A stretch of 64,000 bases of DNA from an uncultured delta proteobacterium (GTDB lineage Bacteria; Desulfobacterota; Syntrophobacteria; BM002). Positions 1,827 through 4,769 of this stretch are shown here, piece by piece. The notes under the pieces were generated by a model that saw only the letters and a list, made by a program, of their open reading frames with translations, ran no database searches and was not told the DNA's origin. The stretch lies in contig CAVQGX010000030.1 of assembly GCA_963712115.1 (NCBI GenBank), positions 128,001 to 192,000 on the forward strand, given 5' to 3'. Both the position numbers and the translations under genes were made by a program. Position 1 is the first letter of the stretch. The number at the start of each line of letters is the position of its first letter.

Positions 1827-2390
1827 ACAATTTACTGAACCACCGAGCTATTTGATATCACAAGGAACAAAGTATCTACAGTTTATTTACATTTTTTTAC
1901 AATTAATTAACAATAAGTTTTTCCATAACAGTAATCTACAGTATATGTACAACTTTGGTACAAATTAGAAACGAATAAATAACAACTTTAAAATAAAAAA
2001 AATTTTATATTGACAATTTGATATGTTTTGAGAGAATGCGTTCATTATTGAACATATATATACCTACCAAGTGATCTAATATCGACTTAAGTTGGGCACA
2101 ATGCGAGTCTTCAATCGCGCTAATGTCAACTGCTTCCAGTAAACTTGATTGAGTTATCAACCCATACTTCTATCTCTACTGTCGGTGGCAGACTGTAACC
2201 GAGTTGGCGAAGCTATGCTCCAGTTACGCTGGAGCACGAGACGGGAGGTCGGGCAAGACGGCGATACGAGAAATCTCTTCAACGGATTTGACTATTTGAC
2301 AATTCGACGAATTGACCTAACTGTGAGCTGTGAGCTTTCAGCTGTGAGCTAAGTTGACAACTTTGACGACTTGAAAGATCGGAGAAAAAA

Positions 2391-2597
2391 ATGATCCTCC
2401 GCTTATGCCTTTCATGTAATTATCACGAAATAAGAGAAGAGCTCGAAACCAGGGTGACCTATTGTCTTAAGGAAAACTGCTGGTCTCAGTACTCGAAGTG
2501 TGTGGCTACAAGAGCCATAGAGCGATTCTTGGAACAAGAGCGCATCGAAGTGCCACCATTCTTTTCGGCCTTATCTCACTTATACAGCGAGTTCTAA
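2391..2597 (+). CDS. Small Cys-rich hypothetical protein
   Basis: 68 aa, GGAG 6-7 nt upstream of ATG, CxxC plus CxxxxC and a further C. Confidence 0.6.
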   Translation: MILRLCLSCNYHEIREELETRVTYCLKENCWSQYSKCVATRAIERFLEQERIEVPPFFSALSHLYSEF

Positions 2598-2751
2598 CCT
2601 GATTATTTCCTGTTCTGCCATCTGTCATCCGCCCTCTGCTTTCTGACTTCTGTTCTCTAATCTCTGACCTCTGGTTAAATGAAAAACGGACGACCGTGGT
2701 GTATAAAGGAATTACCGAAAAACCAAAACACACCACAAAGTAGGTCGTCCA

Positions 2752-3804
2752 ATGAAAAAGGTAGCATATCTGGCTATAGATGTACATGCAGGTCACTGTG
2801 TTCTCGGCCACATGGATTTTGATGGAACTTTTATTGGAAACAGAAGATTTCCCACATCCGAGCGACACATTATCCAGGCCCTCAAAGCTGTTAAAGCAAA
2901 GGAGAAGTATCTGGCACTGGAAGAAAGTAACCTTGCCTATTGGGCTGCCCAGGTGGCCAGACCCTATGTAACCGAAGTCATCTCCTCTGATCCCAGGGAG
3001 AACGCCTTGATCTACCGCAGTGCCAACAAGAGAGATAAGGTTGATACCCACAAGTTGTGCCGTCTTCTTAGACTGGGGGAGTTGAACCGGGTTTATCATG
3101 CTGAAAATGATGACCGCGCCATATTTAAGTCGGCGGTTCAACACTATATAGATCTTCGCGATCAGCAGGTGGTGTTGAAGAACAAGATTAAAGCTATGTA
3201 CCGTCACTGGGGTGTTATTGAGGTAACAGGCCAAGCCGTCTATGGCACCAGCCGTGATGATTATCTGCAAAGGGTGAAGCATCTTCATATTCGCAATCAA
3301 CTTCATCGTCTCTATTGTCTAATGGATGAAACCGAGTCCATGCAAAAAAGAGCTCTTAAGGCAATGAAGCAACTCGGGCGTAAATATCCTGAGATCAAAG
3401 AATTCGAAAAGATGCCTGGCATAGGGGAGATTCTTTCCCATATTTTCGATGCCTTCATTCAAACTCCCCACCGCTTTGCTCATAAGCGTAAACTCTGGCG
3501 CTATTGCCGCTTAGGGATCACCGATCGCTCCAGCGACGGTAAACCGCTGGGATTTAAACGGCTGGACAGATCCGGTGTCTCAGAACTCAAAGCCTTGAGC
3601 TATCGAGCATGGCTTGGTGCCATGGGAGGCGATAACGAGGTTAGAAAGTTTTACTCACGCTCCTTGCGGCAGACTCTAAGCCATGTCCATGCCAGACTCA
3701 ATACCCAGCGAAAGATCATTGCCGTCATGTACGGCATGTGGAAAAGAGGAGATGCCTATAGGCCTGAACTGTTCCTGGATTCGCCACAGATGAACGTTGT
3801 CTAA
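2752..3804 (+). CDS. IS110-family transposase/recombinase (DEDD)
   Basis: AIDVH, LEES, KRDKVD catalytic residues; MPGIG; C-terminal SSDGK serine motif. Confidence 0.93.
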   Translation: MKKVAYLAIDVHAGHCVLGHMDFDGTFIGNRRFPTSERHIIQALKAVKAKEKYLALEESNLAYWAAQVARPYVTEVISSDPRENALIYRSANKRDKVDTHKLCRLLRLGELNRVYHAENDDRAIFKSAVQHYIDLRDQQVVLKNKIKAMYRHWGVIEVTGQAVYGTSRDDYLQRVKHLHIRNQLHRLYCLMDETESMQKRALKAMKQLGRKYPEIKEFEKMPGIGEILSHIFDAFIQTPHRFAHKRKLWRYCRLGITDRSSDGKPLGFKRLDRSGVSELKALSYRAWLGAMGGDNEVRKFYSRSLRQTLSHVHARLNTQRKIIAVMYGMWKRGDAYRPELFLDSPQMNVV

Positions 3805-4176
3805 AGGAGACAGCACCATTAACTGGACTGAAGTGCGCAGACCAGTCCGGCGGATCCGGGTTGCCGGGTGAGTCTCGATCAATAGAAGTCTAGCCACCCC
3901 CGATGCTTCGGGGCGACAGGCTCGACCTCTGGATAGGCCCCCGGCCTTTATACCCAATGTGACCCTAGTCATTTTCCTCTCAGGAAAAACAGACTCATAT
4001 ATGTGACTGGAAAGAACACGGCCCGCACTGTCATGTTGATCCGATCACCCGACTGTGTATGCACACTTCATAAGTTAAGTGATGGTCTGCTCCCACATGG
4101 CCAACAAGGCTCACGGTCGTCCTGTGAAGTCAAAAACTCGATTTCACGGTAATGGATAAGTTTTTCTTTACTTCAC
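3805..4176 (+). ncRNA. Putative bridge/seek RNA region of the IS1111-type element (exact ends unknown)
   Basis: About 370 nt non-coding with hairpins; contains GACCTCTG (3924-3931, target plus core) and ATATGTG (3999-4005, donor plus core). Confidence 0.6.
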
Positions 4177-4475
4177 TTTTCATATGTGACCTCTGATAAA
4201 AACGACTTCAACGATTTAACTAATTGCCTAGGTAATAGGTGATGGGTTATAGGTTTTTGCCTCTTACCCATGACCTTTTGTTCCTTTCCCGCCTGTCTCG
4301 CATTTTTCGCTTTATACCTACCGCTTACTGCTTACCGCGTAACCTTTACTAATACCTAATAATCTTTTCCCACATCTCTTTTTCCCCACCCTACAGCCGC
4401 AGCAAATCACCCACCTCTGAGCAGCCTTCAATTCCATCCACCGCATAACCCTTAATAAAATCAGTTAGGAAAGCA

Positions 4476-4550
4476 TTTTTACCCATTTTATACCGGGTAT
4501 GTTTTGGGTAAATTTACCCATTTCTTACACGGTAAAAAATGGGTAAATTT
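4476..4550. promoter_or_regulatory. Array of TTACCCA/TGGGTAA half-sites, candidate transcription-factor binding sites
   Basis: Perfect 16-bp palindrome TGGGTAAATTTACCCA at 4505-4520 flanked by two more half-sites. Confidence 0.4.
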
Positions 4551-4769
4551 GTGATTCAAGGTTTGAGGTAAAGATTTTTTGCTGTTTGCTGCTTAGAGCG
4601 TGTTAATTGTCGTTCATGAGAGGTTAGGAGATTTGTTCTTGAGCGTTGAGCTGTTAGTTGTTAAGGTCAAAACTTCTACAACTTGACCTAATGGGCGACG
4701 TCTATGCTACTATTTGAGATGATACTTATGAGACTTTAAATATCCGCTTACTGCTTATTAGAAAAAGAG

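Follow-up and report, generated by a model that had tools for sequence, protein, structure and literature searches.

The closest described counterparts of the locus analyzed here are the bridge RNA of IS621, which belongs to the IS110 group (Durrant et al. 2024, PMC11208160; Hiraizumi et al. 2024, PMC11208158), and the seekRNAs of the IS1111 group, which are described for ISEc11, ISPa11, ISKpn4, and ISPst6 (Siddiquee et al. 2024, PMC11187229). According to the relevant sections of these reports, the RNA of the IS1111 elements is encoded in the right end, with the segment matching the top strand being located 5' of the segment matching the bottom strand (PMC11187229; PMC11208160). Subterminal inverted repeats of 7-17 bp are described for this group, and in many of its members the donor-binding bases are found in a multi-loop (Durrant et al., PMC11208160). 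For ISEc11, an 82-nt seekRNA is reported to be sufficient for transposition (PMC11187229).

The layout of the locus matches that of the IS1111-type seekRNA/bridge RNA. The locus is located in a stretch of 64,000 nucleotides, referred to here as the window, and the parts of the element described below are on its + strand. It is highly probable that positions 2672-4188 of the window constitute an intact IS110-family insertion sequence whose layout is of the IS1111 type and whose 3' noncoding end encodes a two-module bridge RNA (seekRNA). This is directly supported by the anatomy of the element, by three guides each of which covaries with its DNA partner, and by the fold of the RNA.

The element extends from the core TG at 2672-2673 to the core TG at 4187-4188, with the body between the cores covering 2674-4186, and these two TG copies are the sole bases that are common to both junctions. 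The left core is preceded in the host flank by the left target arm (LT), GACCTC (2666-2671), which is matched by the RNA at 3924-3929, and the right core is followed by the right target arm (RT), ACCTCTG (4189-4195). The left subterminal inverted repeat, AAATGAAAA (2677-2685; ATATGAAAA in most relatives), is the reverse complement of the right one, TTTTCATAT (4177-4185), with 8 of the 9 positions matching in the window copy and all 9 in most relatives. The noncoding region downstream of the recombinase gene (3805-4186, referred to as the tail) is 382 nt long, as compared with 78 nt upstream (2674-2751). The genome holds three full copies (the window copy, L002, and L003), being 99.6-99.8% identical or better, and two partial copies. 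The full copies carry the same junction strings, ...GACCTC-TG-GTTAAATG... at the left junction and ...CATATG-TG-ACYYCTG at the right one; the LT sequence is the same in all three, which are at separate loci, and RT reads ACCTCTG, ACCTCTG, ACTTCTG, and ACTCCTG across four copies. An IS110 family element is expected to insert site-specifically, with a core dinucleotide at either junction and no duplication of the target. The junctions of all copies fit the order LT-TG-element-TG-RT. No empty orthologous site was found, the left flank being matched in a sister genome in which the intergenic repeats differ, and the placement of the core is therefore taken from the junctions alone. Extending the right end by 2 nt, which would shift the core to the right, is in conflict with the identities of the donor guide. 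In two lineages, the first core position is C instead of T, and the RNA is altered likewise.

Other sequence features are observed at and near the ends. In the left end, a leader hairpin can be read from GGACGACC (2688-2695) and GGTCGTCC (2743-2750), which adjoins the ribosome-binding site and the start codon of the gene. Both arms of this hairpin (2688-2750) are kept in nearly all relatives, and in view of this conservation across the family, masking of translation is its probable role. The left arm of the leader hairpin is also complementary to a third copy, CACGGTCGTCC, located at 4113-4123. Another hairpin is found across the stop codon (3795-3822, TGTCT ... AGACA), and at this site the more distant relatives have AATAGGG ... 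CCCTATT instead. Outside the element, at 4475-4549, there is a long imperfect palindrome (TACCCATTTT...AAAATGGGTA). In an Rfam scan of 2300-4700, no family match is found in 3805-4186, and the only matches are two weak ones to microRNA models at this palindrome.

The reconstructed uninterrupted target, GACCTC-TG-ACTTCT (GACCTCTGACTTCT), is a stretch of a heptamer tandem repeat and has 26 intact occurrences in the genome, in which GACCTCTG occurs 381 times. The number of period-7 arrays in this genome is 151, as compared with 6-12 for periods 5, 6, 8, and 9. Short period-7 tandem repeats crowd the intergenic DNA, for example at 2600-2673, 2320-2350, and 4230-4420 of the window, and the sister genomes of the genus have period-7 repeats too (many short matches). 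No report of IS110 elements that target heptanucleotide tandem repeats was among the papers listed in a literature search. One of the genome copies, L005 (G000:C30:24571-25182, minus strand), is a derivative of ~640 bp without the recombinase gene. Its left end is diverged; behind this come ~100 nt of other sequence, 45 nt from the 3' end of the gene, and then the complete tail with the right end. The derivative is flanked by a proper target (GACCTCTG ... ACTCCTG) and may be a nonautonomous element with its own guide RNA.

Three close and two distant relatives are present among the GTDB genomes, and within the class 4 of the 122 genomes have a match, with the genome of the window being counted. 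The protein collection has 1422 relatives at E <= 1e-20, and in a metagenome scan 478 relatives were confirmed among 595 candidate stretches, from which the best 80 (62-95% amino acid identity) were used. Altogether 86 loci were obtained, of which 74 have a complete tail, and 68 tails were aligned; the left junction is available for 61 of these and the right junction for 67. Six tails of more than 450 nt that carry insertions were left out of the alignment, as was the L015 locus (33% identity), which has no comparable tail. The row of L095, with a truncated left end, was kept and counts against the guide reading. In the six tails that were left out for their insertions (L039, L090, and four other loci), these are 100-200 nt long, that of L039 falling inside the hairpin of the donor module.

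In the initial annotation, a left-target guide followed by the TG core had been read at 3924-3931. The string GACCTCTG is indeed found there, and the exact 9-mer GACCTCTGG is common to the left junction (2666-2674) and 3924-3932. This 9-mer has on average 0.56 matches in shuffles of the window (64 kb, both strands), and the expectation on one strand of the 382-nt tail is ~0.002. The left-target guide (LTG, 3924-3932) thus read consists of GACCUC, the core UG, and one further base, G, being the same as the first base of the element. The guides were searched for by mutual information (MI) between tail columns and junction positions in the 68 aligned tails, which resulted in three patches. Positions 3929 to 3925 are identical to the left-flank bases -1 to -5 in 0.95, 0.93, 0.89, 0.80, and 0.67 of the sequences, respectively, and 3930 is identical to the first core base in 0.98. 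In the shuffle test, 234 of 312 LTG positions match, as compared with a mean of 127.7 (sd 8.0; z 13.2), and in a control with the register shifted by one base only 87 of 312 match, which is a null result. The shuffle tests were done on unique guide-target pairs with 5000 shuffles, none of which reached the observed value, and they ignore relatedness; the argument rests on the direct identity or complementarity that recurs in ~40 distinct guides. Examples of such LTGs are the RNA sequences ACTCCCCG, AACACCTG, and AAGTGTTG, with the flanks ACTCCC-CG, GACACC-TG, and AAGTGT-TG, respectively, and the lineages with a CG core have CG in both guides.

The right-target guide (RTG), AGAAGUC (3884-3890), is the reverse complement of the core G plus ACTTCT. 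Positions 3889, 3888, and 3887 are complementary to the right-flank positions +1, +2, and +3 in ~0.64 of the sequences, and the shuffle test gives 140 of 252 versus a mean of 97.2 (z 6.6; 42 pairs, with gapped rows dropped). When read as GACTTCT, its pairing is complete (7/7) with copy L003 and 6/7 with the flank of the window copy, where an A is opposite a C. Position 3890, which adjoins an invariant UAG, is a C in most members and pairs with the core G in 34 unique cases; in 13 cases it is best placed opposite flank position +1, nine of them with A or G and four with C. The RTG register is thus not uniform, which counts against the reading, and with 3890 at flank position +1, U3891 could wobble with the core G. 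Position 3879 of the target module also covaries with flank position +1 (MI 0.80, complementary in 0.57). Initially, GTCA at 3968-3971 had been mentioned as one candidate for a right-arm guide. This string is present, but the right-target guide is at 3884-3890, and GTCA is not a guide, as it sits in the almost invariant helix AGUC 3967-3970 / GACU 3992-3995.

The left-donor guide with its core had likewise been proposed at 3999-4005. The string ATATGTG is found at these positions, and the exact 9-mer ATATGTGAC is common to 3999-4007 and the right junction (4182-4190), with 0.33 matches on average in the window shuffles (64 kb, both strands), which corresponds to ~0.001 in the 382-nt tail when a single strand is counted. 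The left-donor guide (LDG, 3999-4007) consists of AUAUG, the core UG, and the 2-nt AC, being the same as the first bases of the right flank. Positions 4001, 4002, and 4004 are identical to right-end positions -3 and -2 and the first core base in 0.91, 1.0, and 1.0 of the sequences, and in the shuffle test 77 of 84 match versus a mean of 63.3 (z 5.0), this being based on 12 unique pairs only. The right ends ATGTG, GTGTG, ACGTG, ATGCG, and GCGCG are each mirrored at 3999-4005. In a relative at 37% protein identity, ATAGATGC stands in the equivalent place of the RNA, after GGCUCAG, and it is the same as the right end, the core, and the first flank base of this relative. The copies within the genome are of two alleles, in which L002, L004, and L005 have 3887 A>C (in the RTG) and 4003 G>C (in the LDG), these being the sole differences between the tails of the genome copies. 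In these three copies, the C at 4003 faces an unchanged right end, which counts against the LDG reading.

The right-donor guide (RDG) is tentatively placed, by the symmetry of the modules, at 3956-3965 (AAUGUGACCC), which has the same position relative to its UAG-hairpin as the RTG. Among 346 columns, this segment is the best strict complement to the core plus the left end, with a score of 6.36/10 (mean 2.53, sd 0.94; z 4.1), and in the window copy ~7 of its 10 positions pair when counted by hand, with wobble included. The left end with which this guide would pair is almost invariant. Two other locations were considered for the RDG. One of these, near the stop codon (CCATTAAC at 3817-3824), fails to follow the left-end variants, and the right-end association of the other (GATCCGRTYACCC at ~4040-4052) is patchy and looks phylogenetic.

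Both bottom-strand guides continue beyond the core, as had been pointed out initially for the first 1-2 nt across the recombinant junctions. Position 4006 is identical to flank position +1 in 44 of 63 unique cases, and in four more it is a U opposite a top-strand C; for 4006-4007 jointly there is agreement in 19 of 48 cases versus 10.5 expected, and 6 of 5000 shuffles are as high. The G at 3932 is the same as the first base of the element, and both of these bases are invariant. It is conceivable, albeit rather doubtful, that the two bottom-strand guides of this clade read across the crossover, either as a 'handshake' on those guides or for recognition of the integrated junction in excision. 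In IS621, the handshake bases are described as flanking the top-strand guides (PMC11208158; PMC13626964).

The fold of the RNA was analyzed with RNAalifold, using 60 distinct tails, and by counting pairs on a specified structure. The structured core (3833-4028) is closed by GUGC 3833-3836 / GCAC 4025-4028, and this helix encloses both modules, with a compensatory pair in three sequences. Overall, 92.6% of the cells are paired, both sides are changed in 22 of the 36 pairs, and none of 500 shuffles is as high; when the structure is slid along the alignment as a control, 36-50% are paired. The closing helix of the target module (GCCGGG 3863-3868 / CCCGGC 3940-3945) is 100% paired, with four of its six pairs being compensatory. 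The hairpin of this module (3892-3922) is formed by AGCC/GGCU and CCCCG/CGGGG, having compensatory changes in 2/4 and 5/5 pairs, and that of the donor module (3967-3995) by AGUC/GACU and UUUUCCU/AGGAAAA, having them in 3/4 and 7/7 pairs. The helix GG 4009-4010 / CC 4023-4024 is also among the supported helices. For GGGU 3858-3861 / ACCC 3952-3955, a compensatory change is never seen in the 60 sequences. A pairing of GAGUCU 3870-3875 with AGACUC 3991-3996 was dropped, as the compensatory changes belong to AGUC 3967-3970 / GACU 3992-3995. The target module follows the plan [top-strand guide]-UAGCC-hairpin-GGCUC-[bottom-strand guide]-UGG, and in the donor module this plan recurs, UAGUC and GACUC taking the places of UAGCC and GGCUC. 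The donor guide is located in a multi-branch loop. The AGGCC (3935-3939) and GGCCT (3943-3947) strings, which the initial annotation had read as a hairpin, are present; the local hairpin itself shows no compensatory change, with one pair failing in 24 of 60 sequences, and it is replaced by the long-range helix in which CCCGGC 3940-3945 pairs with GCCGGG 3863-3868. In a single-sequence fold, the stability is not unusual (z -1.5), and the two target guides are paired with each other.

The covariation of the guides with their targets across homologs (z 13.2 for the LTG, 6.6 for the RTG, and 5.0 for the LDG), the shuffle tests, and the compensatory fold together establish that the target and donor guides proposed initially are real. 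The LTG with its core at 3924-3931 covaries with the left flank, and the LDG with its core at 3999-4005 covaries with the right end, each of them within a fold that has compensatory support. The central reading, a bridge-type RNA in the 3' noncoding end with the target module preceding the donor module, also holds.

A promoter scan finds no sigma-70-like promoter in the linear element, and no terminator-like site is found in 3805-4186. When the ends are joined, the hexamer TTTACT (4167-4172) is at 17 nt from TTAAAT (2675-2680), and these would be the -35 and -10 hexamers of a putative promoter that is formed only in the excised circle, as judged from the sequence. In the relatives, the -10 hexamer is TAATAT in 43/67 and the -35 hexamer is TTGACT in 33/67. 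In ISEc11 and ISEc21, promoters of this junction type have been described (PMC11187229). RNA-library contigs of four studies cover the tail, among them X2 (3764-4084, with two differences), X1 (3847-4089), and X6 (3843-4153); their strand is not given, DNA may be present in these libraries, and in three runs parts of the element are without RNA-contig cover. These contigs are a weak hint that the tail is transcribed.

It has also been considered that the guide RNA is a short seekRNA consisting of the target module only (~3863-3945), with 3999-4007 functioning at the DNA level, for instance as a duplicate of the right end within the element or as a binding site of the recombinase. This agrees with the sufficiency of the 82-nt seekRNA in the transposition of ISEc11 (PMC11187229) and with the covariation of the donor guide being limited to 12 unique pairs, but it is quite improbable in view of the helix 3833-3836 / 4025-4028, in which a compensatory pair is seen in three sequences and which surrounds both modules, and of the donor hairpin, which is compensatory in 10 of its 11 pairs. 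Moreover, the RNA-library contigs reach 4084-4089, and 3999-4007 is placed with respect to its hairpin just as the LTG is with respect to its own. It is very improbable indeed that the matches are due to chance or to low-complexity host repeats and that the tail is a 3' untranslated region with a terminator or stability element, since, even if the target is common (GACCTCTG occurring 381 times in the genome) and Rfam is without a family for the region, the tail would by chance have only ~0.002 and 0.001 matches, the guides change together with the flanks where the targets differ from the repeat (as for ACTCCCCG and AAGTGTTG), there is no terminator-like site in 3805-4186, and the covariation already contradicts it.

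The recombinase gene, tnp, of the IS110 family (2752-3804) encodes a protein of 350 residues. It has matches to PF01548 (DEDD, RuvC-like; 38.3 bits, cut-off 29) and to PF02371 (Tnp domain; 33.4 bits, cut-off 21.3), and the score with the NCBIfam equivalog model of IS110, NF033542, is 82 bits, being below the cut-off of 140. Among 72,556 plasmids, the identity of the best match is 21.7%. The low identity in the plasmid database and the NCBIfam score below the cut-off indicate that this recombinase clade is divergent. The supplementary tables of the IS1111 and bridge RNA papers, including Supplementary Table 5 of Durrant et al., may include this clade. The relatives with a solved structure are only IS621 (E 7e-5) and ISCro4, which match in the C-terminal domain alone. 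Residues D10, E57/E58, D95, and D98, which are candidates for the DEDD residues, do not vary among 20 relatives in a sequence alignment. In the region of the catalytic serine, S261 corresponds in the alignment to the serine within the YESG stretch of IS621, and on our reading of the published G--P----SG motif this serine would be S241 of IS621.

By analogy with IS621, ISEc11, and related experimental systems, the RNA would be bound by the recombinase, a circle would be the intermediate, and strand exchange would occur at the core. In the proposed mechanism, the recombinase, having a DEDD nuclease and a serine domain, would be guided by the RNA in bringing the excised circle into alignment with GACCTC-TG-ACYYCT, and the strands would be exchanged at the TG, such that the insertion site would fall inside the heptamer tandem repeats of the host. 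The natural covariation, taken together with the IS621/ISEc11-type systems, suggests that the RNA is programmable.

The tail of the element encodes a well-supported yet expected example of a guide ('bridge' or 'seek') RNA of the kind described in 2024, and the 2024 picture of RNA-guided recombination is left unchanged. What is contributed is a natural case of RNA-guided recombination, mapped well, in a divergent clade that lives in sediment, and the ~40 distinct natural LTGs that are matched to their sites provide a data set on guide rules such as the length, the tolerance of wobble pairs, and the register. It is also evident from this element that heptamer tandem repeats can act as landing pads.

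When compared with IS621, the RNA has the same two modules, target and then donor, and in each module a guide with the sequence of the top strand (left arm plus core) is accompanied by one that is complementary to this strand (right arm), the latter being tentative in the donor module; the core dinucleotide at both junctions and a recombinase with RuvC-like and serine domains are shared too. It differs in that the RNA is in the right end instead of the left, the order of the guides within the module is reversed, the core is TG instead of CT, a multi-branch loop contains the donor guide, and the RTG pairs only with the second core base in most members, and the IS621 protein matches the recombinase of the window only in its C-terminal domain (E 7e-5).

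The similarities with the IS1111 group concern the long noncoding region downstream of the recombinase gene, the subterminal inverted repeats (here 9 bp), the length of the recombinase (330-350 residues in the group, 350 in the window protein), the location of the top-strand-complementary segment 5' of the bottom-strand-complementary segment, the hexamers of a promoter, putative here, that are split between the two ends, and the use of a host repeat as the target. Unlike in that group, where the targets are REP, attC, or transposon ends, the target is here a heptamer tandem repeat, and the bottom-strand guides continue beyond the core for 1-2 nt, reaching into the recombinant junction. With 21.7% identity in the best plasmid match, the recombinase is far removed from those of the IS1111 group, and the likeness to this group is one of layout.
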